Of a DNA stretch of 64,000 nt, positions 29,041 to 45,258 are shown piece by piece. Source of the stretch: a plasmid. Position numbers and translations under genes: made by a program. Numbering within the stretch: position 1 is the first letter of the stretch; each line of letters starts with the position of its first letter. Under the pieces are notes generated by a model that saw only the letters and a program-made list of their open reading frames with translations, did no database searches and was not told the origin of the DNA. The stretch is from sequence record NZ_CP118102.1; one strand, written 5' to 3'.

Positions 29041-29143
29041 AATGTTGAAATTCAAGAGTCTTGCTGCTGGTTCATCTGTGTTGTATTTCAACACAATAAC
29101 TACTATACTATGGTTAAATTAAGTATAGAGGAGTAAGACAAGT

Positions 29144-29431
29144 ATGTTATTCGGTGATTATATACGTGAACTACGAAAAGCAAGAGAACTTACACAAGAC
29201 CAATTATCTAATTTAACAGGGATAAAAAAGCCTTATATTAGCCGTCTAGAAAATAATCACGATAATCCACCTAGCGAAGAGTTGTTGATTCGTCTTGCTG
29301 AAGCATTAGAAGTAGAAACGTATGAATTGATTCTTAAGGCCGGTAAAGTTCCAGAGGATTTCAAAAATCTTATAATTTATGATCCTGAGGTATATAGATT
29401 CCTGGTTAAAAAAATTAAACAAAGTAAATGA
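29144..29431 (+). CDS. XRE-family helix-turn-helix transcriptional regulator
   Basis: IRELRKARELTQDQLSNLTGIKKPYISRLEN is a canonical HTH_XRE. 95 aa. Confidence 0.8.
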   Translation: MLFGDYIRELRKARELTQDQLSNLTGIKKPYISRLENNHDNPPSEELLIRLAEALEVETYELILKAGKVPEDFKNLIIYDPEVYRFLVKKIKQSK

Positions 29432-29497
29432 AAAAATATATAAAAAACAACCAGATAATAAGGTGCTTTTATCTGGTTGAAACATAAGGAGGCATTT

Positions 29498-29800
29498 ATG
29501 CTGAAAAAGATAAACTTCAGAGGCTCAGATTATTTCATACATAAAATTAAATATCCGGACAATAAGAATACTTGTATCATCCTAGACCCTAATGAGCAGC
29601 TTATCAATAATGAAGATTTATACGTAGTCTCCGTTAACCTTGATTTAGGAGAACCATTTCTTGATTTTATCCCATTTGATGTTAATAAACTACCTATGTA
29701 CTTGATGTCTGATCTTATTGAAATGGAAGTATTGGCAGCCCCAACTCACCAAGTGAAGTCCGGTTTTGTTACATACCCACTTTGTAAAGTATTAATTTAA
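29498..29800 (+). CDS. Hypothetical protein
   Basis: The ATG at 29498 follows AAGGAGG. The track start at 29477 is a TTG inside the RBS region. About 100 aa with no motif. A bidirectional terminator hairpin follows: AAACAGTGATTGttacAATCACTGTTT at 29805-29835. Confidence 0.5.
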   Translation: MLKKINFRGSDYFIHKIKYPDNKNTCIILDPNEQLINNEDLYVVSVNLDLGEPFLDFIPFDVNKLPMYLMSDLIEMEVLAAPTHQVKSGFVTYPLCKVLI

Positions 29801-29965
29801 TTCAAACAGTGATTGTTACAATCACTGTTTACATGCATGCAGCGATCACGATCAGCTGCTATTCCCCTATAAATTGATCCTTGAAATGATGAAATCTGCA
29901 TTTACTTGCGAAAGAGTAATAGACTTTGAAGTGAGAGCAACCTACTTATAGACCGGTTGCTCTTT

Positions 29966-30913
29966 CTAAACTTGCTTTTTTTCTTTTGATGTTATGATGG
30001 AAGGGATCGAAGGTTTTATTTTATGCATTGCTCTTTCCTTCACCTCATCCATAACGTGAGTATATATTTGAGTTGTAGAAATGGACTCATGACCAAGAAG
30101 ATCCTGTACTGCACGAAGATCAGCCCCATTCCGTAAAAGATCCGTCGCGAATGAATGTCTAAATTTATGGGCAGATAATGACATTCCGGAAAACTGAGGA
30201 TATTCTGCTATAAGTGCATCAAAAGTTTTTTCTGCGATAGTCTGCACCATTCGCTTGCTAATACGCCTGCGAAATTGAGAAACAAAGAAAGCAGGCTCCT
30301 TGCTATTCCAGGGAGTTATTCGTTCCGTCAAGTATAACTCTAACAGTTGATTTAACTCAGCTGGAAGAGGGATATATCTCCATTTCCCCCCTTTACCTAA
30401 GACACCAATATTTGAGTTATCTTTATCATAATTAACTATATCTAATCTAACTATCTCGCTTACACGAAGTCCAGCGTACGCCATTAAAGCGACGATCGTA
30501 ATATCCCTTAATTGATGTCTTCCTTTAATGAGCTCCAGGGAGGCATCTAAAAACTGTTTTTGGAGGTAGGTAGGTTGCCTTTTCTTTTCAACTTTTGCTT
30601 TTTCAATGTCCAATGTAGGATTATGATCTATTACTCGGAATCTAACCATCACTTTATAAAATAATCGAATTGCTGACTGACACCGATTTCGGTAGCGTGC
30701 TCCTGCACCATTTTCTCTAACCTGGGTGAGATAGGTCATAATTTCAATATCCGTAACATCATTGATGGGTTTATCATCTAAACTTAGGAGAAAATGCTTT
30801 AAATCATGAAGATAAGCATTTTGGGTATCTTTCGAATATTCACGATCCTTCATATAGGAAACAAACAGCCTTACTTCTCGATCGTAACGCTCGAATATTT
30901 CTATATAACCCAT
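29966..30913 (-). CDS. Tyrosine site-specific recombinase / integrase (XerC/XerD-like)
   Basis: Catalytic-region motifs [39 protein letters not shown] (R..H..R..Y) and an N-terminal SAM-like core-binding domain. No IntI-specific insertion. Confidence 0.85.
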
Positions 30914-30943
30914 TAACTCACATCCTAAAATTCGTTTTAAATC

Positions 30944-30977
30944 AAAATTGCATTAAATGCTTATTTAATGCAATTTT
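30944..30977. other. Perfect palindrome (15-bp stem, 4-nt loop) immediately upstream of the integrase gene
   Basis: AAAATTGCATTAAAT-GCTT-ATTTAATGCAATTTT. Same architecture as the palindrome at 22615-22646 but a different sequence. Confidence 0.6.
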
Positions 30978-31130
30978 ATTATAGCAAAAGTGCAGTCATT
31001 TACAAAGAAACAGAATAGCAGGAGCTATGGTGCTCTTAATAATATTAAAGGCGAAATATGTTTATTCATCCAAAATAGAGACTTGCCGATATATATTAGA
31101 AACACGCTATAAAAAGGAGGTATTGGTATT

Positions 31131-31328
31131 ATGTCAATTCGTTTCATGAAGCCATTAAAATCTGATATTCAACTGCATACAGCAAAATTGGACCAGGAGC
31201 CAATATTAGTCTTTAATTCATATGAGCTTGTCGGTAGCGGCAGTATTGAAGAAATCACAGAGTATTCGGTCAAAGTTCGTGGAAATCGCTATTTTAAGGG
31301 AGTGCATACGTTCAAGTATGCTCAATAA
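31131..31328 (+). CDS. Hypothetical small protein (65 aa)
   Basis: AAAAAGGAGGT RBS. Confidence 0.45.
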   Translation: MSIRFMKPLKSDIQLHTAKLDQEPILVFNSYELVGSGSIEEITEYSVKVRGNRYFKGVHTFKYAQ

Positions 31329-31480
31329 CAGTTGAAATTTGAGTAAGTTTAGCGAAAAATCTTATTTTTTCAAACATTAAAAGAAGTAGTTCAAAATAAT
31401 TAACATTTAAAAAGGATTTTATAGGTAAATAGTCGAATGGATATATGAGATAAAATAACTACACGAGAGAGGTTAGGAAC

Positions 31481-32209
31481 ATGAAGGATAAGCTTAAAGG
31501 CATGGTTTTAGGAGTTTTAATTAGTTCATTAGTATTGGGTGGTACTGTGACATATGCTGCTACTAATACAAAGTTGAGTGTTGTTTTAGAAAATATAAAG
31601 TATATGTTTGACGGTGTCCATAAACAAACGACTCAGTCCATCATTTATAATGGGACATTGTATGTTCCAGCTAAGAAAGTAGCTCAAGGATTTGGAGAAT
31701 CTTTTACATATGATGGAAAGAACAAGACAGCTTGGTACGGACAAAAGAACGGAACATTTAAATATCTAGATGAAATTAGTTATGCTAGAGTGGACGGGAA
31801 AAATCCAACTGGATCGATTAACTTTAAAAATTGGACGAATCCTGCTAACTTAAAATTTACAATCGCTGACCAACAATATCTTCATGGTATAGGATCAGTA
31901 CTTGATCAAAATTATAGTAGTGGCGATTACCAAAACTCAATTGATTACAATTTAAATGGTAAATATAAAAAATTAACTGGCTTTATTGGAGTTGATGATT
32001 ACACAAAAAATTCGGTTAATACAGGTACAATCACCATTATAGGTGATGGACAAGAATTGTTTAGACAAGAAAATCTAAAGGGTGGAGATATGCCATCTAA
32101 AATTAACGTAGACGTAAGTGGTGTATTAAAGCTTCAAATTAAATTTGAAAGTTCAGTTGATGAAGGTAAGCATATTGATTTAGTTATTGGAGATGCTAAA
32201 TTGTATTGA
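31481..32209 (+). CDS. Secreted protein with copper-amine-oxidase-like N-terminal domain and NPCBM-like C-terminal domain
   Basis: Signal peptide. KYMFDGVHKQTTQSIIYNGTLYVPAKKVAQGFGESFTYDG resembles Cu-amine-oxidase N-domain repeats found in Bacillales secreted proteins. The C-terminal part is NPCBM/NEW2-like. Terminator at about 32271-32300. Confidence 0.55.
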   Translation: MKDKLKGMVLGVLISSLVLGGTVTYAATNTKLSVVLENIKYMFDGVHKQTTQSIIYNGTLYVPAKKVAQGFGESFTYDGKNKTAWYGQKNGTFKYLDEISYARVDGKNPTGSINFKNWTNPANLKFTIADQQYLHGIGSVLDQNYSSGDYQNSIDYNLNGKYKKLTGFIGVDDYTKNSVNTGTITIIGDGQELFRQENLKGGDMPSKINVDVSGVLKLQIKFESSVDEGKHIDLVIGDAKLY

Positions 32210-32563
32210 TAGATGGCTGTAGGTAGAGTTTCATGAAAATTAAGGTTAAATAGAAAGATTCTTTAATGAAAAAGCGGCAGTCGCTGAGACTGCCGTTATT
32301 TAATTTTTGATATGAACTTTGTAAAAGTAAATTTCTTATAGCGGAATCATAGAAAGCGAAAAATAGCTGTATAGGGATGCTACATTTGGATGGGGATCCA
32401 AACTGATGCAAACGGCCATATTTAAATCACATTGGGTTAAGCTGATGGGAAACGTTAGTCGAAAATAAATTGGAGCAATTTGCCGATTGGCAGCTGCTCC
32501 TTGCTCATTAAGCTAAGCTAGTTACGGGCAGGCTAATAAAATAAAAAACCTCTTATGAGGTCT

Positions 32564-32806
32564 TTATTCCTTAATGTTGCTCTTATAATGTTGGTATCGA
32601 CTAATTCCTAAAAATACTGAAGCAATAATAAACATCCAAGATTGAAACATATCTTGCCTTCTGATTATGTCTTGAATTAATGAAGAAGCGGCAAGAAGTA
32701 TTAGAGTTAATATAACTACATCGGCAAACAAAGGTATTCTTTTGAAGTACCACCTTAGAACTAGCCAACTTAAAGCTCCTAGGCCTAACAACCAATAAAG
32801 AAACAT
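32564..32806 (-). CDS. Small membrane protein (paralog 1)
   Basis: 80 aa, MFLYWLLGLGALSWLVLRWYFKR..., with two hydrophobic helices. Terminator hairpin downstream at about 32540-32560. Confidence 0.5.
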   Translation of the reverse strand: MFLYWLLGLGALSWLVLRWYFKRIPLFADVVILTLILLAASSLIQDIIRRQDMFQSWMFIIASVFLGISRYQHYKSNIKE

Positions 32807-32889
32807 TGTTGCACCTCACAAAAATTAGATGTATTTTAAGGAAAACAAATAGCACCTTGTTGTTAGAAGGTCTGGCTTTGTAGATTGAT

Positions 32890-33150
32890 TTAAGATTGAA
32901 CAATGATTTTCTTTATTTCCTTATAACGACGGAATGCAAGTATAAGTGAAGTGATAATAGTCATGAGAGCAACAAAAGGGTCTGATTGGTATTTAAATAA
33001 AACCTCAAAGAGATATCCAACTCCAAGTAAAAATAGGGTTAGGATCATGGTATCCGTAAATGTTGGTTTTATATTCAAAAATTTTTTGAATGACCAATTT
33101 AGAATTAAGGAACTGATAACCCCTAAGCCAATAACCCAATATACGAACAT
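32890..33150 (-). CDS. Small membrane protein (paralog 2)
   Basis: MFVYWVIGLGVISSLILNWSFKK... aligns with paralog 1 from the first residue. Start moved to the ATG at 33150 with GGAGGTG RBS. The track N-terminal extension has no counterpart in paralog 1. Confidence 0.5.
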   Translation of the reverse strand: MFVYWVIGLGVISSLILNWSFKKFLNIKPTFTDTMILTLFLLGVGYLFEVLFKYQSDPFVALMTIITSLILAFRRYKEIKKIIVQS

Positions 33151-33229
33151 GTCACACCTCCAGATTAAACTTAACACAATATACAGTATATGTAAATTAC
33201 ATCGAAAGACGATTTTTGTCGAGGGACAA

Positions 33230-33335
33230 TAACTTGTACCGATTACCGGAATGGACATGAGCATGGGCCTATTACCGATTAGATAAATATCTAACTGAAA
33301 TTCACAGCTATTTCATTAAGCTAACGGGCAGGTTA
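33230..33335 (+). repeat. Partial copy of composite repeat R2, ending in the R1 terminal motif cattaagctaacgggcagg
   Basis: cttgtaccgattaccggaatggaca...ccgattaccgattagataaatatctaactgaaattcacagctatttcattaagctaacgggcagg matches 35283-35375 almost base for base. Confidence 0.8.
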
Positions 33336-33533
33336 ACGTCCGCCTACTCCACCAACTTTCTAATTAACTAACGCGCAGTCGCGAAAAAAAGAACCATTTG
33401 AATTTAATTGCAGCAGCAAAGCACAGAATAATTCATCCTTAATAAAAGACAATTTTCTTGTTTTAGTCAGAAGGGGGGGGTCTCAACTAACGCGTGAAGA
33501 ATAATTGGAATGACTTTTGAAAGGAGATTCGAA

Positions 33534-33587
33534 TTGAAAATTTGTAAAAGAGGCTGCAATTGTTGCTGTAGTGATCTTTATCTTTAA
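33534..33587 (+). CDS. Putative 17-aa Cys-rich peptide (M)KICKRGCNCCCSDLYL
   Basis: TTG start 7 nt after AAAGGAGA. Not in the ORF track because it is shorter than 60 aa. Shares a K-C-(K/R)..C.NC-like motif with the Cys-rich segment of 23144..23512. Speculative. Confidence 0.25.
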   Translation: MKICKRGCNCCCSDLYL

Positions 33588-33762
33588 TTTAATTTTGGAA
33601 CTACTATTTGATATGAGCGATTTCTTTGAGAGTTTTGAAAAGGGATTTGTACTGGGAGTAGGGTATTACTTAATACTTCTTATATCAGTATTTTTAATAG
33701 TATTGATAATAATGGCTATATCTAGGATTATCTCTAAACTAAGGAGAACTAATAAAAAATGA
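33571..33762 (+). CDS. Hypothetical small membrane protein (63 aa)
   Basis: ORF-track entry, strongly hydrophobic (LGVGYYLILLISVFLIVLIIMAI). Overlaps the end of the Cys-rich mini-ORF in another frame. Confidence 0.35.
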   Translation: MIFIFNLILELLFDMSDFFESFEKGFVLGVGYYLILLISVFLIVLIIMAISRIISKLRRTNKK

Positions 33763-34134
33763 GTTATACGTATGCAGGCTAAATGATTAGATTTAAAACA
33801 AAAAGACAGGTAGAAATTCTCGTATTAATTTTAGATCGTATCATTAAGCTAACGGGTAGGTTAGGTTAACATAACAAAGATGTAAAAATGCCCATAAATT
33901 CTACTACTTAAAAACGCGCTGATAAGCAATTTTCACGGGCTGTATTGATCTCGTCAGTGCCAGTACAGGGGAGTTGAGAAAAAGGTACGGGTTGATTTAT
34001 GTGGATAAGGAGATGAAGGGAACGGAACATTGAAACGCAGCCGTAAGGACTCCTTTTACTGGTAAAAAAATGCATTGAATCAAACGGCCAGGAATTAAAT
34101 TAGTATATATTTTAGACTCATTGAGTTTGTTAAA

Positions 34135-34175
34135 GGAAAAGACTGAGTCCATACGGAAACATGGACTCAGTCTTT
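34135..34175. terminator. Terminator-like hairpin
   Basis: AAGACTGAGTCCATacggaaacATGGACTCAGTCTTTT. Confidence 0.55.
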
Positions 34176-34477
34176 TGCAATACCTTGCTTATTTTAAATA
34201 GTCAAGCATAAAGGGAATTTGACTTCTCTTCGGACCACCCCTTTATTTTCTTTGCCGTAAACGGAGCGCTAACCGGTCGATTAGAGTAATAGTTCCGCAA
34301 TTGTTCAACGTACATTTCAATTCATTACTATCAATTGAAGTTGGATACTCATCTTCAAACATTACCAAGGATTGTGGCAGACGTGTACTGGGCACCGTTG
34401 GTTGCGATCGGATCATAAATTGTCGGGAGACAAGAACATATTCCCATTGAAGTCGCTAATTTAGCGGCTTTTTTGTT

Positions 34478-35241
34478 ATGGCTTTAGCCAGTTGAGTGCG
34501 TGAAACGCGCGAAACAAAAAACCACCCGCTATGCGGGTGGAGGAATCAAAGGTTTGACCACCAAGACCATTCCGATAGAATTGAGATGTTCAGGCTCAAA
34601 GAAAGGAATGGTCTTAGATGGCAAACAAGAGCTACAGCCTAGCTCACACAAAGTGGATGTGCAAATACCACATTGTATTCACCCCGAAGTATAGACGGAA
34701 AGAGATCTATAATCAAGTAAGAAAAGATCTAATTGAAATATTCAAACGTTTATGTAAGTACAAAGGAGTAGAAATCATAGAAGGCCACATGATGCCAGAT
34801 CACGTGCACATGTTGGTAGCAATCCCACCGAAAATTGCAGTCTCATCGTTCATGGGATATCTAAAAGGTAAAAGTTCTCTAATGATCTTTGAGAAACATG
34901 CCCAACTAAAATACAAATACGGAAATCGTAAATTCTGGGCAGAAGGATATTATGTAAGTACAGTGGGCTTAAATGAAGCGACGGTAAGAAAGTACATTCG
35001 TGAACAAGAAGCACATGACCAAGCAGTAGATAAACTGAGCGTAAAAGAATACGAAGATCCGTTCATCAGTAACAGGACCAAAAAGAAATAAACCAGTTTA
35101 ACTGGTAAGTGAAAGTGACAAAAACACTGAGCCTGAACAGACTTGCTGTCAGGCTAGCGTCTTTAGGCGCAGTTTGGCAACAGGGGGTTATACCCCAAGA
35201 GCAAACCACCCGTTGGACGGGTGGTCCTGATTTTGATTTTA
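34478..35241 (+). mobile_element. IS200/IS605-family insertion sequence (tnpA only), inserted into a copy of repeat R2
   Basis: Subterminal hairpins CCACCCGCTATGCGGGTGG on the left and CCACCCGTTGGACGGGTGG on the right. The flanks (…agcggcttttttg | IS | attttatcggtacaag…) are contiguous in the uninterrupted inverted copy at 51043-51095, which defines the ends without a target duplication. Confidence 0.85.
34618..35091 (+). CDS. tnpA: IS200/IS605 family transposase TnpA (HUH Y1)
   Basis: HUH motif PDHVHMLVAIPPK. Y1 region KFWAEGYYVSTVG. 157 aa. Confidence 0.9.
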   Translation: MANKSYSLAHTKWMCKYHIVFTPKYRRKEIYNQVRKDLIEIFKRLCKYKGVEIIEGHMMPDHVHMLVAIPPKIAVSSFMGYLKGKSSLMIFEKHAQLKYKYGNRKFWAEGYYVSTVGLNEATVRKYIREQEAHDQAVDKLSVKEYEDPFISNRTKKK

Positions 35242-35244
35242 TCG

Positions 35245-35375
35245 GTACAAGTTCTTGTCCCAAGCCAAGGACAAGAACTTGTACCGATTGCCGAAATGGA
35301 CAAGAACATAGTCCGATTACCGATTAGATAAATATCTAACTGAAGTTTACAGCTAGTTCATTAAGCTAACGGGCA
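35245..35375 (+). repeat. Composite repeat R2: 20-bp-stem palindrome plus conserved tail ending in the R1 motif
   Basis: ATCGGTACAAGTTCTTGTCC-caagccaagg-GGACAAGAACTTGTACCGAT, then tgccgaaatggacaagaacatagtccgattaccgattagataaatatctaactgaagtttacagctagttcattaagctaacgggca. The left part of the unit (34422-34477) is separated from this by the IS200. Confidence 0.85.
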
Positions 35376-35553
35376 TATTAGTTATAATTGTTTTCTACAG
35401 GCAATAGCGTGTTTTTATGGGTTATCATTGCTCATAGAAGATTAACCACAAATCTATAAAGGAGCCAAAACATGAGCAACGATACTCATTCATTATCTGA
35501 AGAAGATACTTTTACAATTGAGTGTAATGATATCATTCTAAGGGAATTTATTT

Positions 35554-35987
35554 GTGTGTACTGATTTAGATGAGTTTCATTCCTTGACATGGCAACCCGA
35601 AATACATGAATATTTGCCGGGTTGGAACGTAACTAAAGAGCAACGAAAAAATTGGCTTATTAATTATGAAATCCTTGAAAACAAACAGTTTTTAATTGCC
35701 GTATCACAAGGTGGTGTCATTGGTGAGCTTCGACTTCGGATGGGAATCGAACTAAGGGAGTCAGGGGAGTTAATCGGTTGGTGCTGTACTGGAATCGATG
35801 CTTGGACAACCAACCGATTGAACGATTCTGGGGTACCTTTAAAGCAGAAAGCTATTATCTGGAGAAGTATGACACATACGATGATCTTCTAAAAAGTGTG
35901 AAAATCTACATGCGCTACTACAATAACAATCGGTATACCGAACGGCTCAACGGTTTATCTCCTAACGAATTTCGCCGAGCAGCTTAA
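35554..35987 (+). pseudogene. Remnant: GNAT-like fragment fused to the C-terminal fragment of an IS3-family transposase (OrfB)
   Basis: ORF 35778..35987, IERFWGTFKAESYYLEKYDTYDDL...ERLNGLSPNEFRRAA, is the conserved C-terminus of IS3 integrase-core transposases. The overlapping ORF 35554..35892 in another frame looks like part of an acetyltransferase. Neither is intact. Confidence 0.6.
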
Positions 35988-36166
35988 CTAAGGGAAAATA
36001 ATCACCTCACTTTATAGCCGAGGTATTGAAGAGTGATAATCTTTTGTTTTTTAGACTGTCTACTTGACAGGGAGCACTTCACTTTTAGCCAGGCGCTTCT
36101 TTTTTCTTTCGCAAAGGGGCAACTGGCGGCCTTGACCGACTGCCAATCGCCGCGCCGTGTAAAGTT

Positions 36167-36598
36167 TTACTCAAGTTGATTTTTCTCCTCGACACCTAGC
36201 GGTTCAAAAGCTTCTCTAAGCTTATGTGCCATTGTAGTGTTCCCATCGTAATAATAGACGAGTATTCTGCCCATACCATAAGATCCGTTTGGGGGGGCAG
36301 CAGAGGCTGTTGGAAATGGGTCGCGTTGTACTTCTCTCCTTTGTGCAACGTCTGCGAAAAGGTATATCGTTAAGTTCCCTTGTTCGAGTTGATATAAGTG
36401 AATCTCAGCGCCTTCTCTTTGAGAATCATATACATTTTGGCTTTCAATCCTTTCAACGTATTGAATACCAGCTTCATTAAGAACAGTCAACACGCCGTTT
36501 AAAGTCACTCCCGCAAACTGTTCCTGCGTACCTGATTTACTGCCACAAGCACATAAAATAAAAACTATAACAATGAAGATAAATAAAGTCTTGTTCAT
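36167..36598 (-). CDS. Probable lipoprotein, function unknown
   Basis: Signal peptide MNKTLFIFIVIVFILCAC with Cys. 143 aa. Confidence 0.5.
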   Translation of the reverse strand: MNKTLFIFIVIVFILCACGSKSGTQEQFAGVTLNGVLTVLNEAGIQYVERIESQNVYDSQREGAEIHLYQLEQGNLTIYLFADVAQRREVQRDPFPTASAAPPNGSYGMGRILVYYYDGNTTMAHKLREAFEPLGVEEKNQLE

Positions 36599-37018
36599 AC
36601 CCCTTCGCCTCCTTTTTAGTTAAGACGTAGAAAAAGTGTTAATGTTGCATTGCCCCATTAACTTGATATCTATTTCCCTTTTATAAACTATAATTTTTTT
36701 TTGCAGCTTTTTTGTAGTTAGAAATGCTACCTCTTTGTGTTTTAGCGTGTTCTACAAGTAAGTTCATTTTCTCGAATCCGGGGAGTCGTTTCCGCGCTCA
36801 TTAAACAACGAAAAGCTGTATTGGCTTCGCTAACATCGGCGTTAGGCGGGAAACTGCGGTTTGATTAGGCCCAAGCAGTAACAGAAAAACGAATTATTAA
36901 ATATAATTTTCTACAAATTACAACATGTTTTGGTATATATTTGGTATTTTTGATCTATATAGTATTTTTATGAATGACAATATAATTTAGAAGAAATATT
37001 ATGAATTGGAGGTACGAT

Positions 37019-37621
37019 ATGAAAAAGTATTTATTGGTACTAAGTGCATTTCTTTGTTTGCTTTTGGTTAGTCAAGAAGTGGGTGCTTATGATTTCTACG
37101 GGAGCGGTTACAAGAACACCAACGCAACAACCGGAAGACATGCCAACCCAGCGTTGAACGGAGTTGTATACAACGGAACTACATACAACTTCAACACACA
37201 TTATGTGAACGCTAGAAATCGATGGAATAATGCTACGGATGTAAACGTATCTTCTGGGACGACTGGTACTATTGCAATCAGGTCATTCCACGGCGATTAC
37301 GGGAATAATGACCTATTCGGATGGGCAAGAATGTACAAGAGTGACGGGACGACGGTACAATCGTGTGCAACATGCGAACCTACAGCTAACTGGGCCTATT
37401 CGGATGTTTATTTAAATCAATTTCATATCCACAATGATGGCGAAGGCGGCGATCCATGGTCACCTATGTATATCGATGGTCTAGCTACACATGAGTTTGG
37501 GCATGCATATGGCTTAGCACATGAGGATGACGTCGAGTCGGTAATGCATTCCGGAAATCTGTATGAAGGGTATTTAACGCCAAGGCCGGATGATATTAGC
37601 GGAATGAACGCTTTACATTAA
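37019..37621 (+). CDS. Secreted zinc metalloprotease, metzincin (snapalysin/M7-like)
   Basis: Signal peptide MKKYLLVLSAFLCLLLV. Zinc-binding motif HEFGHAYGLAHE (HExxHxxGxxH). ATG at 37019 after GGAGGT. Confidence 0.75.
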   Translation: MKKYLLVLSAFLCLLLVSQEVGAYDFYGSGYKNTNATTGRHANPALNGVVYNGTTYNFNTHYVNARNRWNNATDVNVSSGTTGTIAIRSFHGDYGNNDLFGWARMYKSDGTTVQSCATCEPTANWAYSDVYLNQFHIHNDGEGGDPWSPMYIDGLATHEFGHAYGLAHEDDVESVMHSGNLYEGYLTPRPDDISGMNALH

Positions 37622-37637
37622 ATTTTGGAGGTGCAAA

Positions 37638-38261
37638 ATGAAGAAGACTATTATTATATTACTGTCATGTATAGCTATGGCGGCATGTTCGAATGTAGAA
37701 AAGCCATTAAATACTGCAACTGCTACTAATACTGCAACATCAAATATTGCGACCACGCAAATTGTAGACCAAACAGCTGGCTCAACTGCAACAATTCGGC
37801 TATATGAATCTCTAGAAGAACTGACTAATAGTTCAGATGTAGTTGCAGAGATTATACCTGGAGATTCCAAGAAACTAATAGAATACGAAAATGCTAAGTT
37901 CACACTAATTGACGCAAAAATTAAAGATGTTTTCGTTGGAGATAATTCGCTAAAAAATTCAACAATAAAGGTGCTTGAATTGGGAGACTACCAAGTTGGT
38001 GATACGCAACTTGTAAAGAGCAAGGAACGTTATTTAATCTTCTTGAGGAAGTATCAGGGGTCCGTTACCTCTGAAGAAGCTTATGTACCGGTAGGGGTCT
38101 ATCAAGGGAAGTTAAAAATTAAAGATGATCAAACATTAGTTTTTGAAGGGGGAGGGGATATTCACGCAAAACAGAAAAAGATTTCCTTCCAACAGGAATT
38201 AGCATCCGTTGAATTAACTGAAGCAGTGGAGAAAATTAAAGCTAGTAAATCTAAAGAATAA
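37638..38261 (+). CDS. Lipoprotein, function unknown (possible partner of the adjacent metalloprotease)
   Basis: Lipobox LLSCIAMAAC. 207 aa. GGAGGTG RBS. Begins 17 nt after the protease stop. Confidence 0.55.
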   Translation: MKKTIIILLSCIAMAACSNVEKPLNTATATNTATSNIATTQIVDQTAGSTATIRLYESLEELTNSSDVVAEIIPGDSKKLIEYENAKFTLIDAKIKDVFVGDNSLKNSTIKVLELGDYQVGDTQLVKSKERYLIFLRKYQGSVTSEEAYVPVGVYQGKLKIKDDQTLVFEGGGDIHAKQKKISFQQELASVELTEAVEKIKASKSKE

Positions 38262-38269
38262 AGCTCAGG

Positions 38270-38650
38270 CCAGTCCGGAATTGAAAGAGAAGCTCGAGAG
38301 GCTGGCGGCGGAAAGCGGCCTAGAGACGCAAGAGGTGTTCATCGAGCAACTGGCAGCGATCTACGAGCTGCAACAGCTCAAATAAGGCAATGGCAGCGGC
38401 TACGCGAAGCAGATCGAGGAACTGGAGCATCATTCGCGCCGGAACGTGGAGCTTTTCATCGGTCTGATCAACACGGAGGCGGCTGCGCGTCTCCAGCAGA
38501 CGCAAGCGCATGATGACGTTCTCGCGGAACGGGCGCTGACGATCATCGCGCAGGAGCAAGAGCTGGCGGAGCAGCTGGAGGCCAACAAGCTTCTGCGTCT
38601 TATTACGTATGCCCAATTGTTCCATGACTTCTTTTACCGGTATACCGGCT
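38270..38650 (+). other. Roughly 380-bp island of high-GC DNA embedded in low-GC sequence
   Basis: The local composition switches to G/C-rich codons (gcggcggaaagcggcctagagacgcaagaggtg...). Open frames include ...KLERLAAESGLETQEVFIEQLAAIYELQQLK* and the track ORF 38446..38652. The fragment abuts an IS3 OrfA remnant. Confidence 0.6.
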
Positions 38651-38654
38651 AACC

Positions 38655-38757
38655 TCATCTCAATAGCTTTCATTTTGACTTCAACAGGATAACTAACTCT
38701 AGTTGCCAACGAAAAACACCTCCAAGATTGTCTCCATATCTTACGACATGGTTGCAT
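38655..38757 (-). pseudogene. N-terminal fragment of an IS3-family transposase OrfA (HTH)
   Basis: MKAIEMRLAGIPVKEVMEQLGIRNKTQKL matches the N-terminus of IS3/IS150 OrfA. The reading frame then runs into the high-GC fragment with no transposase-like sequence, as in track ORF 38320..38757. Confidence 0.55.
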
Positions 38758-39582
38758 TTTCTTGAAGGTGTTTTAATTTGTCTCACGTTATGGGGTCAGT
38801 AAAAAATATGAAGGAAGTCGGTTGTCATAATATATATTACGTAAACTATTTATTATACATTTAGTCAAAACTCGTATTTTGATCATATGTCTGGGACAAA
38901 AGAAAGAGCCATCCATACGGATGGCTCTCTTCTTCATATAGCGTTTCTTCTATTATATGTAAATTCTCTCCAATAGTCAATTTCACTTAACCCTTTTGAT
39001 AAATTTATTCTCGAAAGAAACAAATAACAATTCTTCTTTTTCTTGGTCATTCTTTTCTCTAATTGAACCTAAAGTTTTACGCAAACCGATTTTCCAAATC
39101 AGACAAATAATTAAGGTCTTTCATTGTCACACCTCAATTCCGACTAAAACCACTCGAATTTAAAACACCGCCCTCTTTGTAGGCGGCGATCTAATTCAGT
39201 AATTTCTCATGGTGTATTATTATGATACCCTTATCACAGTCATTAAATACATAGTATGGAATATAATTTGTCAAACGTTGGACTATTTTGTAGCTCTATA
39301 GAGAATATCTAATGGTTTGCGAGCTGCATCCACTGCTGTTGTTCTCCTTTAGTCAGCTTTTCCTCAAGTATTACCCCATTTTCATCAGTGCTCTTCAGCT
39401 TTAGTTGCATCAGCTGCTTGCTTAGTTCAATATATTCCTTTAATTCGTCTTCAATCAAAATATCTCCTTATTAAAACCCCTAGTATTTTATCGGTTGTCG
39501 TAAATTCTTTAGGAAGACATAAGATGATATTTGAGTTTATTTAGTTCTGTTACATAATCCCGAAGTTAGTTTGAATTAAAAT

Positions 39583-39660
39583 GGAGCAGCTACCAACCGG
39601 CAACTGCTCCATTCTGTTTTAAACTTACGTTTCCCGTTAGCTTAATCAATATCTGTAAAG
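39583..39660 (+). repeat. R1 repeat copy (terminator-like hairpin plus cccgttagcttaatc)
   Basis: GGAGCAGCTACCAACCGGCAACTGCTCCattctgttttaaacttacgtttCCCGTTAGCTTAATC. Confidence 0.8.
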
Positions 39661-39667
39661 TCCTTTA

Positions 39668-40213
39668 TCATTCTGTAATGTGCTTGAGCACCTTGGCCGG
39701 ATTACCCGCGACTATCGTGTTTGCTGGCACATCTTTCGTTACAATTGAACCAGCTGCCACAATGGAATTATCACCTATTGAAACACCTGGAAGAATTGCA
39801 CAGTGCCCTCCAATCCAAACATTATTTCCAATCGTTACAGGAATACCGTAACCAGATTTATTTCGGTCCTTTGGATTAACATTATGACCAGCCGTGTAAA
39901 TGCCGACATTAGGTGCTATCATGCAATCATCACCGATACGAACCTCTGCCATATCCAATATGGTGCAATTGTACCCTGCATAGAAGTAACGGCCAACATG
40001 AATGTTATAACCCAAATCACAGTGAAAATTATGATCGATACTAAAACCTTCACATACGCTGCCAAATAGTTCTCTAATCAATCGTTCTTTCTCTTGCTCA
40101 TCTTCCGGATCGCAGTCATTATAAGCCTTCACAAGCTTTTGGGCTCTTATGCTTTTTTCTCGAAGTTCCACCGTTCCTCGTTCGTAATAGACCTTTTCTT
40201 TATTTTCTTTCAT
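39668..40213 (-). CDS. Hexapeptide-repeat sugar O-acetyltransferase (maltose/galactoside acetyltransferase, Maa/LacA-like)
   Basis: Left-handed beta-helix repeats IGDDCMIAPNVGIYTAGH...IGNNVWIGGHCAILPGVSIGDNSIVAAGSIV and the N-terminal Mac domain. ATG at 40213 after GGAGGAAAACA. Confidence 0.8.
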   Translation of the reverse strand: MKENKEKVYYERGTVELREKSIRAQKLVKAYNDCDPEDEQEKERLIRELFGSVCEGFSIDHNFHCDLGYNIHVGRYFYAGYNCTILDMAEVRIGDDCMIAPNVGIYTAGHNVNPKDRNKSGYGIPVTIGNNVWIGGHCAILPGVSIGDNSIVAAGSIVTKDVPANTIVAGNPAKVLKHITE

Positions 40214-40254
40214 TGTTTTCCTCCAGGCAAAAACGGTTTTACTTATTATATACT

Positions 40255-40345
40255 AGCCAGCATCTACGTTGAAACTACCTGCCCGTTAGCTTAACGAAAA
40301 AGGAGCAACTGCCAACCGGCCAACTGCTCCATTGCTTTTTTGGTC
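40255..40345 (+). repeat. R1 repeat copy
   Basis: aactaCCTGCCCGTTAGCTTAACgaaaaaGGAGCAACTGCCAACCGGCCAACTGCTCCattgctttttt. Confidence 0.8.
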
Positions 40346-40375
40346 TTCAATTTACCCGTCACCTTAAACACTGAA

Positions 40376-40951
40376 TCATTTCATTGATATTGCTATCAAG
40401 ATCATTTCCTCTTTAGTTAAATCTCCGCTTTGGATTTCAATGAAAGTACCATCTTGTATCCATCGTAGGTATCCTCCTGATTTATGGTTAGCCCATTGTT
40501 CAAATCGCCCTTCTATTCCATTCATGTTAATTTTCTCTCCATGTCCATTAAACTTAAATTCCTCGACTATAGTTCTTGTTGTACTTGATTGGTTGCGAAG
40601 ATCGATGTTAGTGACAACCCGGTTCATTTTATATCCAACTGCCTTATGTTCTTCAATTCCAAACAGATATGTCTTTCCTGATTCATCAAAAAAATGAAGT
40701 CTAACTTTTGAGACTGATCGACTATGATCAAACGGATATGGTTCCTTAATTTCTAATTTATAGCTTTGAACGGAGGAAGACGGTGTAAAAAGTTTGAAAT
40801 CAGCAATAGTTTTTAACTTATACAATTCAAAATCCGAAAAAGTTAGCGTAGGTTTAGCTGATGCGATGAGTAAGTTATTGTTGATTCCAACAGAAATCCA
40901 ACAAATAAAAATCAATGAAATAATCCATCTAGACAAAAACATTCCCTCCAT
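40376..40951 (-). CDS. Hypothetical secreted/membrane-anchored protein
   Basis: 191 aa with an N-terminal hydrophobic segment. No motif recognised. Confidence 0.5.
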   Translation of the reverse strand: MEGMFLSRWIISLIFICWISVGINNNLLIASAKPTLTFSDFELYKLKTIADFKLFTPSSSVQSYKLEIKEPYPFDHSRSVSKVRLHFFDESGKTYLFGIEEHKAVGYKMNRVVTNIDLRNQSSTTRTIVEEFKFNGHGEKINMNGIEGRFEQWANHKSGGYLRWIQDGTFIEIQSGDLTKEEMILIAISMK

Positions 40952-40999
40952 ATTTTTTTGGGAATATTATGCCCTTGTTTAATTAAACTAACCTGCCCG

Positions 41000-42934
41000 T
41001 TACTAGAGTAAAGGGCTGGGTAAACCAGCCCCTCCTCATCAAACCGTACGTGAGGTTTTCCCTCATACGGCTTTCCGATGTTCGTCATTCATGTGCATAC
41101 AGATTACAAAAGCGTTTTGAGTCCACATTGACTCGCCATGTTCCTCACTTCTTGGACTGCACTTTGCCACCGAGAACGTTGTCTTTTCTTTGCATACCAC
41201 TTTGCCAAACGCAGCACAATGTACCAATCTAACTTCGCCATTTTTCGTTGGCTGTAGGACGTGTGGTAGTAATTGCGCCACCCCTGAATCTTCGGATTCA
41301 GCCAACCTATGTGCTCCGCGAGTGACTTGTGTCTTTGGCTGGACGGAGCTAAGCGCTCTTTTACCACTTCCCGGATGCGTTCCTCCGCTTTACTGCACAG
41401 CCACTGCTGCGTGGTGTAGTACACTCTTCCGGAGGATGTCTCAGCTTTCGTCTTGCGATGATGCATGCCTAGAAAATCAAACCCTTCTTCTCCTGTCCAT
41501 AATCCTACGATCCGCGTTTTCGTCGGATGCAAGGTCAGTTCCAGACGCTCCATAATCGCACGTATGAGTGCATACGCCCGATCTGCATCTTTCTTCGTTT
41601 TGCATACGACAACGAAGTCATCCGCGTAACGCGTAAGTTCCCCATTTTCACTGCCATGTCGTTCCCACAGAATATCAAAATAATTCAAATAGATATTCGC
41701 TAGCAGGGGGGATATCACACCACCTTGTGGTGTACCCAGATCGGATCGCCTGATCTTTCCTTCCTCCATCACTCCCGCGTTCAGCCACTTCCTTACCAGC
41801 TTCAGGACGCGCCTGTCGCTGATTCGCATCTCTACCAGTTTCATCAGTTTCTCTTGGTTGATGTTGTCGAAGTAACCTTGGATGTCGACGTCGACCACCC
41901 AATTTCCTTTTCGGTTGCAGGCTTTTCGGATTCGGTCCAGTGCCCCTTTCGCACTTCGTTTTGGACGGAACCCAAATGAGGATTCCTGAAAGTCCGCTTC
42001 AAAGATCGGTTCCATGACCAGTTTCGCTGCCATCTGGATGACGCGGTCTCGGACGGTTGGGATGCCCAGCGGTCTTTGCTTCCCGTCTTTCTTCGGAATG
42101 TAGTGCCGGCGGACGGGCTGTGGATGGTATTTGTTTTCCTTCAAGTGTCGTTGGCATTCGTACAGGAAAAACGCTTCTCCCTTTTCCTCAATATCCGAAA
42201 ATGTTTCTCCATCGACGCCAGCCGATCCTTTGTTAGCTCGTACTCTCCGCCAGGCTTCCTCTAATACATCCATTCGATAGACCTTGTCGTACAACGCGTG
42301 GAATCTGCGCTTTTTGTTTTCCTTGGCCGCATGACCTAGTTTCTTCTGGAGTTGTTGAACGTTTTCCTTTGGTGTCGTTAGCCGTTTGGCATTCACTAAT
42401 TCGTACCTCCTAAAAAAAAACATGAACAAAGCAGGGCTCCTTCCCTCCTGCAGGTTGTGTTGTCCTGCAGTTCCTCAGTACTACGAGCCCCTCGGACTCC
42501 CTTCCTGCAAGTAGATCATTTCATCTTTTGGACTTATAGACCACTTTGTTACGGTTTCAAAAAAAAAAAAAAAAAAATCCGTGCAGGGGAGGGTCTCCCC
42601 AGTTCACTGCATCTTCTTTCATATCATGCCGATCCCCTTACGCCGGAGGATTCTTCACTGCCGCTCCAAGTTCTTAGCAGTTTCCGTGGCCTTCACCCAT
42701 TAAGCCGGGGTTCGGCTTCCCCTTGTCCCTCTTGCGAGGCCTCTTTGACGACGCGGCAGGATTCACTTGATGTTACGGCCTGAAATATTGCTCGCTCTGT
42801 CTCCGACAGATACTTTTGTCGATACGCTTCTACGCACAGTTTTCACCGTACATAGGTATCCTAGCTACACAGGGGCTTGGCCCCTCCTGTGACTGGACTT
42901 TCACCAGCTAGAAGATGCGTGCTTAGCTGGGCAC
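41000..42934 (-). mobile_element. Group II intron (bacterial class C-like) inserted into an R1 repeat copy just downstream of its terminator-like hairpin
   Basis: Minus-strand 5-prime end GTGCCCAGC... at about 42934. Domain V, AGCCGTATGAGGGAAAACCTCACGTACGGTT, lies at about 41040-41075 on the minus strand. Domain VI follows and the 3-prime end is ...CTAGTAAC at about 41000. The R1 halves flank it: ctccatttttcgttaagcgc on the 5-prime side and acgggcaggttagttt on the 3-prime side. Confidence 0.8.
41104..42396 (-). CDS. Group II intron-encoded reverse transcriptase/maturase
   Basis: RT motifs include YADDFVV and a maturase-like C-terminus. GTG start at 42396 after AGGAGGT. The track ORF extends to 42429. 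Confidence 0.85.
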
Positions 42935-43015
42935 GCGCTTAACGAAAAATGGAGCAGCTGCCAATCGGCAAACTGCTCCTTGTTTTTTTGGACTAACGTG
43001 TTTACCGTTAGTTCA
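42926..43015 (+). repeat. R1 repeat (5-prime-exon side of the intron insertion site)
   Basis: gcgcttaacgaaaaatGGAGCAGCTGCCAATCGGCAAACTGCTCCttgtttttttggactaacgtgtttaccgttagttcattaaac. Confidence 0.8.
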
Positions 43016-43058
43016 TTAAACGTACCATGTCTGTATAGTGATTAAATCACTTTCTTCA

Positions 43059-43961
43059 CTAATCAGTGATTAAAGGCTTTCTTTGGTTAAGCTGATCTTT
43101 ATTAAAGACTAACTCCCCACGTGTCCAAAATCCTTTTTGCACATATCCATCCCGATGAATTTTGGTCCCATAGCCATGTTCTAAATTATCTACCCAACCG
43201 CCTTCATAAACAGTACCATCATTCCATTTATATATTCCGTTTCCATCGTACAGCCCATCTTTCCATTCTCCACGATAAAAATCACCATTTGCGTATTCTT
43301 TAACACCAAAACCATATTCCTTATCATTAAACCATTGTCCTTCATATTTTGATCCATCTGACCAACGATACACCCCGGTTCCACATTTTAATCCGTTCAT
43401 CATTTGCCCGAGGTAAGTTTCACCTGATTCATATTCAATACATATTTGATTCTCCTTTACACTTTCCCATACTCCTTCAACCCTTTTGTTGTCGATATGA
43501 ATTACGGACTTTATCAAATTAGGTTTTGTCTCATGTTCAGATTGAGTAACTACTGTTCCTATTTGGGGTTCAAGCAACAAGGGGGGCGGTACAAATTGGT
43601 CGTTTACGAAGGTTTTGTAATACCAAGCTGTCAGATCGAAAATTTCTAAAATAAGTGTTCTCACTTTATTTTTTTCAATGAAAATAAAGCTTTCTCTAGT
43701 ATCCAAGTATTCTAACTTCTTCAGCGTTGTCACCATGGAAAAAGGTAAAATTTCAATTTCCATTAGTGCAGATAAATTAATAAAAGGCTCAGAATCATCA
43801 ATTTCTACATTCTCATTTAGTAGAATCTTTTTAACGATTAACCGTCCTATTTCTTTCAAATGATTTAAAGCTAAGATGTGGTCAAATTCTAATATATATT
43901 CAGCATGATATGCTAAAGAACAGACATCCGGCATTTCGTTTTCAAACACTTTAAAGCTCAT
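43059..43961 (-). CDS. MORN-repeat protein with unknown N-terminal domain
   Basis: At least five C-terminal MORN-like repeats (YEGQWFNDKEYGFGVKEY, YRGEWKDGLYDGNGIYKW, YEGGWVDNLEHGYGTKIH). The roughly 150-aa N-terminal domain has no motif. Confidence 0.65.
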   Translation of the reverse strand: MSFKVFENEMPDVCSLAYHAEYILEFDHILALNHLKEIGRLIVKKILLNENVEIDDSEPFINLSALMEIEILPFSMVTTLKKLEYLDTRESFIFIEKNKVRTLILEIFDLTAWYYKTFVNDQFVPPPLLLEPQIGTVVTQSEHETKPNLIKSVIHIDNKRVEGVWESVKENQICIEYESGETYLGQMMNGLKCGTGVYRWSDGSKYEGQWFNDKEYGFGVKEYANGDFYRGEWKDGLYDGNGIYKWNDGTVYEGGWVDNLEHGYGTKIHRDGYVQKGFWTRGELVFNKDQLNQRKPLITD

Positions 43962-44014
43962 TCTCCACCTCCATTTTTCCCGATACTATCCAAATAACTT
44001 CTACATATACTTTC

Positions 44015-44110
44015 AACTAACCTGCCCGTTAGCTTAACAAAAATGGAACAGCTGCCAACCGGCGAACTGCTCCATGCAGTTTTGATCTACCGTTTCCCGT
44101 TAGTTTAATC
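44015..44110 (+). repeat. R1 repeat copy (complete form with flanking direct repeats)
   Basis: aactaaCCTGCCCGTTAGCTTAACaaaaatGGAACAGCTGCCAACCGGCGAACTGCTCCatgcagttttgatctaccgtttCCCGTTAGTTTAATCC. Confidence 0.8.
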
Positions 44111-44415
44111 CTTAAGGGGCGACAGGTATAGGTTCTTTTCTACAGGTACTTTAAGAGGAGGCGAGGGGCGACAAACCCCATTTGGTACTTAAATATCCAG
44201 ATCAAAAAAATTGGTTCAGTATTCCTTTCTCTGCATTCGAAGAAGTATCCAGAGTTCCTACAAGCGATAATGTCTTTTTGGCTTGTTGTCCTTTCCTTCT
44301 TTTCATCCTGTTTAAAAAAATAATTTTTATAAAAAAATAAAACGCATGCAACATTTTGTCTCTGAAAGTTGTTTGTAAATTTTAGCCTATTTTATCCAAT
44401 ATAAAAAGGAAACTA

Positions 44416-44955
44416 CATGCCCAAGCTTTCTAAATTAAATTACTAACAACAGCTCTATTATCTTTTTCGGCTGCTACTCTCGTTTCTGGTGCAGTTTTCG
44501 CAGCAGATGAATATGTCACAAAACATACTCTCTCAAGCAGTTCTGTAGACAACAAAGAAATTAGATGGGATGGTTACACAAGGTATGAAACCGCATGGTC
44601 ATTTGCAGTTAAACTCTAAAAAGATCAGGGAAGAGTCAACGTAGCTAAAGATACTTTAGCCCAAATTGAAGACCTCACACTCTTCGATTTTCATTATCCG
44701 TCAGAAACTTTCACTGCCATTTGGGTTCCTAGAACAGGTGCTGACGAAATTCATTTCAATATTGATAACATGGAGAAACCCGGAAGAACAGATAATCACA
44801 ATAAGAAAACGGCATCTCACGAACTTGGCCACGCTTTAGGGGTTAGCGACCATTATGAAGACACGTACAGTACACAAATCATGTATGGGTTTGCTTCTAG
44901 TACAACAACACTTAAAACACACGAAATCAGCGATTACCGTTCTAAAAACCCTTAA
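44416..44955 (+). pseudogene. Disrupted second copy of a snapalysin-like metzincin protease
   Basis: The C-terminal ORF 44770..44955 keeps HELGHALGVSDH (HExxHxxGxxH). The upstream signal-peptide and pro-region reading frames (from atgcccaagc...) are broken by in-frame stops. Confidence 0.6.
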
Positions 44956-44972
44956 ACAAGGAGGAGAATGAT

Positions 44973-45149
44973 ATGATGAAGAAAGTCATTATTGCAGGTT
45001 CTGTACTGGCAGGCGTTCTATTCTGTACCTTTCTAGTTACTGAAATCATGCCAAAGCAGGAACCAGTGCATTTTAAGCTGCGACCTTTCTTCGTTACCTA
45101 CCGTTATGATCCGTCTCGTTTACAGCGCTCACTGAACCAAACCGAATGA
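44973..45149 (+). CDS. Hypothetical small membrane protein (about 58 aa)
   Basis: AAGGAGGAGAATGAT then ATGATG. MMKKVIIAGSVLAGVLFCTFLVTEIM.... Not in the ORF track because it is shorter than 60 aa. Coordinates are accurate to about 1-2 nt. Confidence 0.35.
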   Translation: MMKKVIIAGSVLAGVLFCTFLVTEIMPKQEPVHFKLRPFFVTYRYDPSRLQRSLNQTE

Positions 45150-45258
45150 ATTTATATCCTCAATAATCAGTCTAGCTTGCGGAGAAGATTATAATTCACA
45201 TTTCTATCAATGATGACTTAAAGTCATTGATGTTACAAGCTTTCACTTAGATATATTT

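Follow-up and report, generated by a model that had tools for sequence, protein, structure and literature searches.

The 64,000-nucleotide stretch of plasmid DNA analyzed here (sequence record NZ_CP118102.1, referred to as the window) carries a dispersed repeat family, R1, of which five full copies and three part-copies span positions 32437 to 44108, in a region (29900-45200) that is 100% identical to NZ_CP118110.1, a plasmid of Paenibacillus urinalis from a human blood isolate. An initial annotation had described R1 as a terminator-like hairpin flanked by direct repeats that punctuates single-gene, cassette-like units. Gapped alignment of the five full loci confirms that the family is real (a unit of ~95-100 nt, with 68% mean column identity), and the same family was recovered by an independent repeat search of the window. 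From its anatomy, distribution and junctions, we conclude that R1 is probably a composite junction element of a gene-cassette array built by site-specific recombination, integron-like in its action and native to the Bacillales.

Inspection of the repeat revealed that each composite consists of two near-palindromic boxes of 26-27 bp placed around a GC-rich, terminator-like hairpin. The general form of the box is TTAAGCTAAC-GGGnnn(n)-GTTAGTTnAA, in which two inverted 10-bp arms are separated by a 6-7-nt spacer and the asymmetry is due solely to the GGG beside the left arm; tyrosine-recombinase core sites have this arm-spacer-arm arrangement. In the reading direction of the cassette genes, one box (BoxL) is TTrAnCTAAC-GGGaAAC-GtTAGTTnAA and the other (BoxR) is TTAAGCTAAC-GGGCAG-GtTAGTTnAA, and the two are direct repeats of each other. 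The conserved element reported earlier beside the hairpin, CCTGCCCGTTAGCTTAAC, occurs five times at up to three mismatches, as compared with 0.01 occurrences expected, and the box motif is confined within the window to 32437-44108. A 28-mer hairpin consensus proposed at the same time holds only in part: the copies align to it with gaps, but a search at up to three mismatches returns a single ungapped match. The loops of the R1 hairpins vary by 1-nt indels.

Copies A to D read on the minus strand and copy E on the plus strand. Copy E (32437-32539) has its BoxL at 32437-32463, its hairpin at 32472-32500 and its BoxR at 32508-32539, the last disrupted by an 8-nt insertion. Copy A (39559-39645; BoxL 39619-39645, hairpin 39583-39610) retains only a left half-box at 39559-39575 and forms the end of the minus-strand sub-array. 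Copy B (40269-40368) comprises a degenerate BoxL (40342-40368), a hairpin (40302-40330) and a BoxR (40269-40294), and copy D (44012-44108) a BoxL at 44082-44108, a hairpin at 44045-44073 and a BoxR at 44012-44037. Copy C is in two parts, one (42937-43016) with BoxL at 42988-43016, the hairpin at 42951-42979 and the 5' half of BoxR at 42937-42943, and the other (40983-41002) with the 3' half of BoxR, TAACGGGCAGGTTAGTTTAA. The lone 3' pieces that had been noted at about 33308, 33843 and 35352 proved to be single boxes, beginning at 33316, 33844 and 35361 (motif matches 33315-33332, 33843-33860 and 35360-35377). Two of these three are fused to a further element, D2, and the other, TTAAGCTAACGGGTAGGTTAGGTTAA (33844-33869, plus strand), closes a small unit with a 63-aa open reading frame (ORF) at 33571-33762. 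A single box can fold as a short stem-loop.

The genes between the copies are single and unrelated to one another, as had been claimed. On the minus strand, Pfam matches identify a hexapeptide/Mac sugar O-acetyltransferase (39668-40213), a DUF4367 protein (40376-40951) and a MORN-repeat protein (43059-43961). On the plus strand, the first unit (31131-32209), which leads into copy E, holds a 65-aa ORF (31131-31328) and an NPCBM/Cu_amine_oxidN1 protein (31481-32209); in a comparison locus, L001, a DUF6547 gene precedes the same copy E. A truncated GNAT acetyltransferase cassette (35472-35888 or 35472-35987, plus strand), joined by a frame-shifted fusion to the C-terminal fragment of an IS3-family transposase, is a decayed cassette. 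Segmental duplication can be set aside as the origin of the repeats, the genes between copies being unrelated and the repeat being present in more than 100 other genomes.

Beside the array lies a gene for an Xer-like tyrosine recombinase of 315 aa, IntA (29966-30913, minus strand; Pfam Phage_integrase with a SAM-like N-terminal domain), 1.5 kb from copy E. The earlier statement that no IntI is present was strictly correct but overlooked this gene. IntA is 100% identical on at least 21 public contigs, all of which keep one of its flanks (HTH, HicB, PAPS reductase, ThiF, E2 and helicase genes). On its other side IntA borders the R1 region, where contigs with identical IntA carry wholly different genes. 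The conserved limits of this variable region are the IntA promoter near position 31012 and, towards BlaR1/BlaI, a point near 45070. The window and L001 cease to be homologous at ~31012, ~35 nt past a palindrome in front of IntA and ~100 nt upstream of the IntA start, and segment 32436-33294 is inverted relative to IntA in L001. Two outcomes that the initial annotation had named as counting against cassettes, a repeat restricted to this locus and a conserved order of units, both fail: the repeat occurs beyond the locus, and unit order is unconserved.

The hairpin between the boxes has the makings of a transcription terminator. In the window, a U4-5 tract directly follows the stem in four of the five R1 copies. 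Across many species we recovered 42-43 units of the form BoxL-hairpin-BoxR, in which the spacing between boxes is near constant (45-52 nt) and the hairpins belong to several unrelated sequence families, with a mean folding energy of -17.5 kcal/mol (-7.4 for shuffled sequences) and an A-rich stretch ahead of the stem in 29 of 42. These properties suggest that the R1 hairpin acts as an intrinsic terminator, often a bidirectional one, that would end transcription between BoxL and BoxR and so insulate neighboring cassettes; the hairpin between its two boxes behaves as a small module without an ORF.

The element that splits copy C, an interruption the initial annotation had recognized, is a group II intron (41003-42936, minus strand; Rfam RF02003 at 42768-42910 and RF00029 at 41002-41075) with a reverse transcriptase (RT)/maturase ORF at 41104-42429 whose Pfam domains are RVT_1 and GIIM only, without an endonuclease domain. 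It lies at GTTAAGC|TAACGGG, 14 nt past the R1 hairpin and in the sense orientation relative to the cassettes. Its ribozyme domains, its endonuclease-less RT/maturase and its insertion right after a terminator-like hairpin are those of a group IIC intron, RT phylogeny aside, and it behaves as group IIC introns do, which likewise seek terminators. L001 has a 97%-identical intron (2954-4964) in another R1 copy, at the corresponding point of the box. The intron has homed into one position of the box in two R1 copies, and terminator plus box constitute its homing site. Introns of the IIC-attC type insert in the bottom strand of integron cassettes, antisense to the genes (PMC3001079). The window intron shares with them a location inside the recombination site of a cassette array, an endonuclease-less RT and a place after a terminator-like hairpin; it differs in its sense orientation and in having the box, rather than attC, as its target.

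The box is widespread in the Bacillales. An exact scan for TTAAGCTAACGGG-N3-4-GTTAG in one genome per species returned at least 120 loci, and the matches listed all fall in this order, mostly in Paenibacillus and also in Bacillus, Peribacillus, Neobacillus, Cytobacillus, Cohnella, Priestia, Planococcus, Brevibacillus and more. A search of PLSDB with the R1 unit found just 7 records, which indicates that the arrays are mostly chromosomal, and a scan of viral contigs gave only 4 matches. In Bacillus sp. FJAT-28004, 15 co-oriented boxes occupy an 8-kb block, each placed at the stop codon of a small ORF that reads in the direction of the box. Two further blocks, with boxes in unchanged orientation, are found on this scaffold at distances of 56 and 104 kb; the array may run continuously for more than 100 kb, the blocks alone being the DNA examined. 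In locus L104, small co-oriented ORFs end at or just before a box in every case, with 60-140 nt to the start of the following ORF. Over all loci, the longest ORF is sense-oriented in 175 of 201 inter-box intervals of 200-2500 nt, with a median interval of 993 nt and a median ORF of 176 aa. The inter-box intervals, L104 and window 39559-44108 thus all present a co-oriented, mostly single-gene cassette array.

The cargo of these arrays is diverse, with 147 cassette ORFs matching 125 Pfam families. GNAT, NUDIX, APH, Cu_amine_oxidN1, SDR, HIT, GyrI-like/Cass2, methyltransferases, pentapeptide repeats and glyoxalase lead the list, and immunity-type genes (Imm11, Imm44, SUKH) are also among the cargo of Paenibacillus arrays; the profile as a whole resembles that of chromosomal integrons. 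The earlier suggestion of a cassette array is therefore upheld on three counts: the genes are single and mostly co-oriented, content varies between plasmids with identical IntA, and the repeat bounds cassettes in many Bacillales.

Box variants also occur. Single boxes in several Bacillaceae loci (L014, L036, L079, L083, L095 and L130) have a conserved (T)TGTGAAGAAATGTAC motif in front, and in Evansella (L083) the composite of (T)TGTGAAGAAATGTAC and box lies directly upstream of a truncated ORF resembling IntB, a second recombinase described below. In P. polygoni (L135), an array at 2077-9929 is built of variant boxes, CTAACGAAAAAACGTTAG, with GAA or GGA in place of GGG and a longer spacer, although the IntB found there is 87% identical. 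It seems that each array has spacers of its own.

Comparison of shared cassettes locates the break. A cassette of 1052 nt is present at 96-98% identity in Bacillus sp. FJAT-28004, Paenibacillus sp. H1-7 and P. vulneris, in unrelated flanks, and both of its ends are box spacers. At the left junction the left arm and GGGnAG diverge and identity begins at GATAGTTGAATGA; at the right junction identity runs through TTGAnCTAACGGGTA(A)C and ends before GnTAG. A second junction of this kind lies in the BoxL spacer of copy E, between the window and L001. These positions show by comparison that a cassette consists of a right arm (GnTAGTT...), one gene, and a left arm plus spacer, with the break at the boundary between spacer and right arm, much as the integron cassette breaks at G|TTRRRY. 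In an all-against-all BLASTN comparison between loci, 22% of the ends of shared segments fall within 15 nt of a box, as compared with 2% of random positions.

These junctions bear on two explanations that would dispense with site-specific recombination. According to the first, boxes and hairpin are RNA- or transcription-level elements of the 3' untranslated region (UTR), and the arrays arise by ordinary gene flux; the placement of boxes directly after stop codons in sense orientation, the strong hairpins with U-tracts and the ability of every box to form a short stem-loop are all what such elements would show. The box is, however, conserved across genera in its primary sequence, beyond mere structure. 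Between the two boxes of a unit the arms do not covary, and inside single boxes any covariation is weak at best (29 of 2000 permutations). Boxes without a hairpin exist, a conserved recombinase gene is embedded at a fixed distance from a box, and cassettes of different species that are 96-98% identical break exactly in the box spacer. We consider this explanation improbable.

A second explanation, in line with the earlier description of the region as rich in miniature inverted-repeat transposable elements (MITEs), is that R1 and the boxes are MITE- or REP-like non-autonomous elements spread by a transposase, such as the IS200/IS605 TnpA of the window. The elements are indeed short, palindromic and dispersed, a Y1 transposase does lie in the region, and the box may bear a weak likeness to the ends of IS231. 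Yet no target-site duplication was seen at the junctions that we read (the 1052-nt cassette and copy E; no systematic search was made), and the boxes of R1 are directly repeated rather than set as terminal inverted repeats. All right-end-type copies in the window lie to the left of the left-end-type copies, so that no bounded element can be drawn, and this orientation rules out a terminal-inverted-repeat (IS231-like) model. Nor are the co-orientation of genes and the placement at stop codons expected of a MITE, and no transposase recurs with the arrays. The IS200/IS605 transposase, which the initial annotation had put forward for checking, is present, but the end hairpins of its element are unrelated to R1 and the element is a secondary insertion in D2, at a site that is intact in L001; it is thereby ruled out as the mobilizing enzyme. 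Spread as MITE- or REP-like elements is on these grounds highly improbable.

Inside the box loci we found a second Xer-like recombinase, the conserved IntB of 280 aa (N-terminus MxLSELWRLYEADKRIQGFSP). It has 351 homologs, and identity among them is 75-95% across Paenibacillus, Cohnella and Bacillus sp. FJAT-28004. In 11 of 11 loci inspected, IntB lies within the array, co-oriented with the boxes, and a box (degenerate in L147) lies ~95 nt upstream of its start codon; most loci also have a BoxR-like site just past its stop codon. In the 5' UTR of IntB, a conserved hairpin forms in which the Shine-Dalgarno sequence, GGGAGG, is paired to CCUUCC or a variant of it, with compensatory changes from species to species, which suggests translational control of the recombinase. 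We observed this hairpin, ~90 nt upstream of the start, in L027, L052, L062, L133-L135, L139, L146 and L148. Homologs of IntB at 57-66% identity lie in phage tail and lysis modules that have no boxes; two of these IntB-like recombinases, in the tail-fiber/lysis modules of L137 (5752-6642) and L138 (2710-3549), may belong to a tyrosine-recombinase system of tail-fiber switching.

IntA and IntB, which are 25-28% identical to each other, both have the SAM-like core-binding domain and catalytic domain of Xer-type simple tyrosine recombinases, and alignment indicates that the catalytic residues R-K-H-R-H-Y (invariant R, K, HxxR, H and Y) are kept in both. By curated cut-offs IntB is not XerC, XerD or IntI (~90 bits for the integron integrase model TIGR02249, against a cut-off of 265); its closest solved relatives are XerA, XerC-like and XerD proteins, and IntI4 matches only ~60 C-terminal residues. 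IntA scores 210 bits for XerC in NCBIfam (cut-off 335) and 132 bits for TIGR02249 (cut-off 265), in an alignment split in two. Since both proteins fall below the XerC, XerD and XerA equivalog cut-offs, they are not the housekeeping enzymes. The recombinase at work is probably different from that of integrons.

We propose that a dedicated Xer-like tyrosine recombinase cuts and rejoins the boxes, which would lead to excision, insertion and inversion of cassettes, and the best candidate for this enzyme is the IntB family resident in the arrays. Our search found no IntB on the P. urinalis plasmids, so recombination in the array of the window would fall to a chromosomal IntB, supplied in trans, or possibly to the adjoining IntA. 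The same mechanism can also be drawn with IntA as the dedicated recombinase of the plasmid, in the manner of intI in an integron. IntA abuts the hypervariable region, with the conserved backbone stopping ~100 nt before its start codon; the sub-array closest to it is divergently oriented, as in integrons; a 44%-identical homolog in P. vini lies 2 kb downstream of a composite of D2 and box; and the plasmid search returned no IntB. On the other side, IntA has no flanking boxes, and its homologs are box-poor: the 81%-identical one, on a P. lautus plasmid, has only 2-3 boxes ~10 kb away, and a 44%-identical one has none. The gene moreover travels with the conserved HTH/HicB/PAPS-reductase/ThiF/E2 module, and the orientation of the boxes relative to it differs between L001 and the window. 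The association between IntA and boxes is thus weak, and a dedicated role for IntA is a tentative and rather unlikely alternative to IntB. A palindrome, AAATTGCATTAAAT-GCTT-ATTTAATGCAATTT (30946-30977), separates the -10 element of IntA from its ribosome-binding site and is kept, with compensatory changes, before the 81%-identical IntA of the P. lautus plasmid (L131); it looks like an operator. No attI-like site was recognized beside IntA.

An integrase-less cluster of attC sites (CALIN) used by an IntI-type integrase, that is, a true integron remnant, is a further explanation. In the arms of the box, the sequences GTTAGnn and nnCTAAC come close to GTTRRRY and RYYYAAC, and the likeness of the repeat to the integron R box noted earlier holds when read literally, GCTTAAC fitting RYYYAAC and GTTAAGC fitting GTTRRRY. 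The ~100 nt of R1 can be drawn, as for copy D, as an R box, an unpaired spacer, an L box and a variable hairpin (outer arms paired, spacers unpaired, inner arms paired), and Cass2 is among the cargo. Single-strand folds of R1 are nonetheless ambiguous between local and long-range pairing; there is no covariation between the arms that would pair, and in the 42 composite units arm pairing stands at or below the permuted level, which led us to reject a long attC-like fold. In this the judgment of the initial annotation, that the overall structure is not attC-like and that IntI is absent, is sustained. Lone boxes of 26 nt also bound cassettes, the recombinases that we found are all far under the integron-integrase cut-offs and lack the IntI insertion, and integrons are almost absent from the Firmicutes (PMC4889954, PMC9024848). 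An integron remnant is in consequence exceedingly improbable. Because arm covariation is absent and single boxes suffice to bound cassettes, double-stranded core-type sites are a simpler reading of the boxes than attC.

Several observations weigh against our interpretation of R1 as a recombination junction. Recombination itself, the enzyme and the position of cleavage are inferred by comparison of sequences. The R1 hairpins are not flagged by a simple terminator scan, because their stems are imperfect. The density of boxes in a fuzzy scan of the box loci (313 in 934 kb, with none in shuffled sequence) is biased upward, the comparison loci having been picked for holding an exact box. Only about a fifth of shared-segment ends lie at boxes and the rest lie elsewhere, and window 35.4-39.5 kb holds genes but no boxes. 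To the absence of IntB from the P. urinalis plasmids and the scarcity of boxes around IntA relatives may be added that ~50%-identical IntB homologs occur on Bacillaceae plasmids without obvious arrays, where isolated BoxR-like sites only are found. Finally, spacers are heterogeneous inside one array, which is awkward for a classical two-step exchange; this heterogeneity would allow for an exchange of single strands that replication resolves, as happens in integrons.

With these points taken into account, we lean towards the view that the Bacillales (Paenibacillaceae and several Bacillaceae) have a cassette-capture system of their own, with an evolutionary origin independent of integrons, in which IntB would act on palindromic boxes of 26-27 bp, with arrays of maybe more than 100 kb, small terminator cassettes that insulate genes, and exchange across genera. 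Like the sedentary chromosomal integrons of Vibrio and other Proteobacteria, it comprises long co-oriented arrays of mostly single-gene cassettes with a conserved recombination element between them; the right-hand core (G|TTRRRY there, G|nTAGTT here) comes first in a cassette and the remainder of the site last, the comparative data placing the boundary of the mobile cassette at the 5' edge of the right-hand core site. Cargo such as GNAT, NUDIX, glyoxalase and Cass2, the existence of ORF-less cassettes and a tyrosine-family recombinase of Xer-like descent are likewise held in common. Unlike integrons, however, the recombinases lack the IntI insertion in the catalytic domain (TIGR02249 alignments split around it, and IntB has only 280 aa) and score under the family cut-offs; the site is a sequence-conserved box of 26-27 bp without arm covariation, as opposed to a structure-conserved attC of 57-141 nt; the IntB gene lies within the array, co-oriented and with boxes on both sides, instead of divergently at one end with attI and Pc; and the host is a Gram-positive order. 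The system is therefore integron-like in its working yet fails integron membership, having no IntI, no attC and another platform layout. As to MITE or REP elements, the boxes depart from these in being directly repeated, in lacking a target-site duplication at the junctions read and in their unrelated TnpA.

Literature searches, with subscription-only work outside their reach, found neither the box motif nor such arrays in Bacillales or Paenibacillus described. The rAID-1 loci of Bacteroidales, defined by an XerD-like recombinase more than 44% identical to BF9343_RS08045 and lying 5' of at least two co-directional low-GC genes, pair an XerD-family recombinase with co-directional small accessory genes, whose intergenic repeats have been called integron-reminiscent (bioRxiv 10.1101/471110). 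Compared by architecture, not by recombinase sequence, the arrays share with rAID-1 their strain-variable content and immunity-type genes (Imm11, Imm44, SUKH); they differ in phylum, in having the recombinase within the array and not only at its 5' end, in their much broader cargo, and in a repeat for which a palindromic core site and its junctions are mapped here. Soil bacilli, including Paenibacillus, have polyimmunity loci, strain-variable tandems of small genes with an occasional XerC/D neighbor that has been suggested to aid their accumulation (PMC3482391); no recombination site or cassette boundary was described for them, whereas the arrays are defined by boxes and immunity genes are a minority of their cargo.

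The pdif modules of Acinetobacter plasmids are gene modules between short Xer-type arm-spacer-arm sites, found in varied plasmid contexts. The pdif sites resemble chromosomal dif, serve as substrates of the host's XerC/XerD and occur in alternating orientation; the boxes, by contrast, are direct repeats that do not resemble Bacillus dif and occur together with a dedicated recombinase.

The near absence of integrons from the Firmicutes, in which surveys found one complete integron (Limnochorda) and a few CALINs, is an acknowledged puzzle (PMC4889954, PMC9024848). A native cassette system, if real, would explain integron-style gene shuffling in a phylum nearly without integrons, and would mean that cassette platforms evolved more than once. 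It would also open a large unexplored pool of small accessory genes in soil and clinical Bacillales, one that includes aminoglycoside-phosphotransferase-like and acetyltransferase genes and is met here on a plasmid from a human blood isolate. The combination of a simple 26-bp site and a 280-aa recombinase would in addition be a candidate tool.

Other elements accompany the array. D2, ~170 nt long, has an internal terminator hairpin and 3-4 GGACAAGAACTTGTACCGATT iterons, two of which together make up a perfect 20-bp inverted repeat. Within the window, D2 is joined to BoxR in two plus-strand composites, at 33216-33341 (D2 33216-33315, BoxR 33316-33341) and at 34420-35386 (D2 34420-34482 plus 35231-35360, BoxR 35361-35386). 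The second is interrupted, just after the terminator within D2, by the IS200/IS605 element (34483-35230; TnpA 34618-35091, end hairpins 34519-34540 and 35203-35224); L001 1120-1250 is the uninterrupted D2 site. The D2-BoxR composite, with its fixed spacing, recurs in at least 11 other species, and D2 is met elsewhere with no box beside it; the element was seen in L012, L019, L028, L030, L038, L039, L055, L097, L102, L118 and L124; a further D2 lies in the window at 50950-51100. It may be a promoter or platform element, or a separate mobile element.

The base composition of the window changes abruptly, from 59-66% GC in positions 1-22,500 to 34-46% in 22,600-64,000. The high-GC part carries ABC/MFS-type genes that are Proteobacteria- and Actinobacteria-like, and the low-GC part matches Paenibacillus urinalis-type plasmid DNA. 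Because the first ~22.5 kb are unrelated to the Paenibacillus part, the window appears to be a join of two unrelated sequences. Beside IntA, positions 23410-29800 encode HTH, HicB, PAPS-reductase-like and ThiF/E1-like proteins, a 466-aa protein and Prok-E2_D, a set that looks like a ubiquitin-like (E1/E2) defense island; the same neighborhood on other contigs adds a GerE regulator, YdjM and a helicase. A Tn3-family transposon that interrupts ThiF in CP118110.1 is missing from ThiF in the window.

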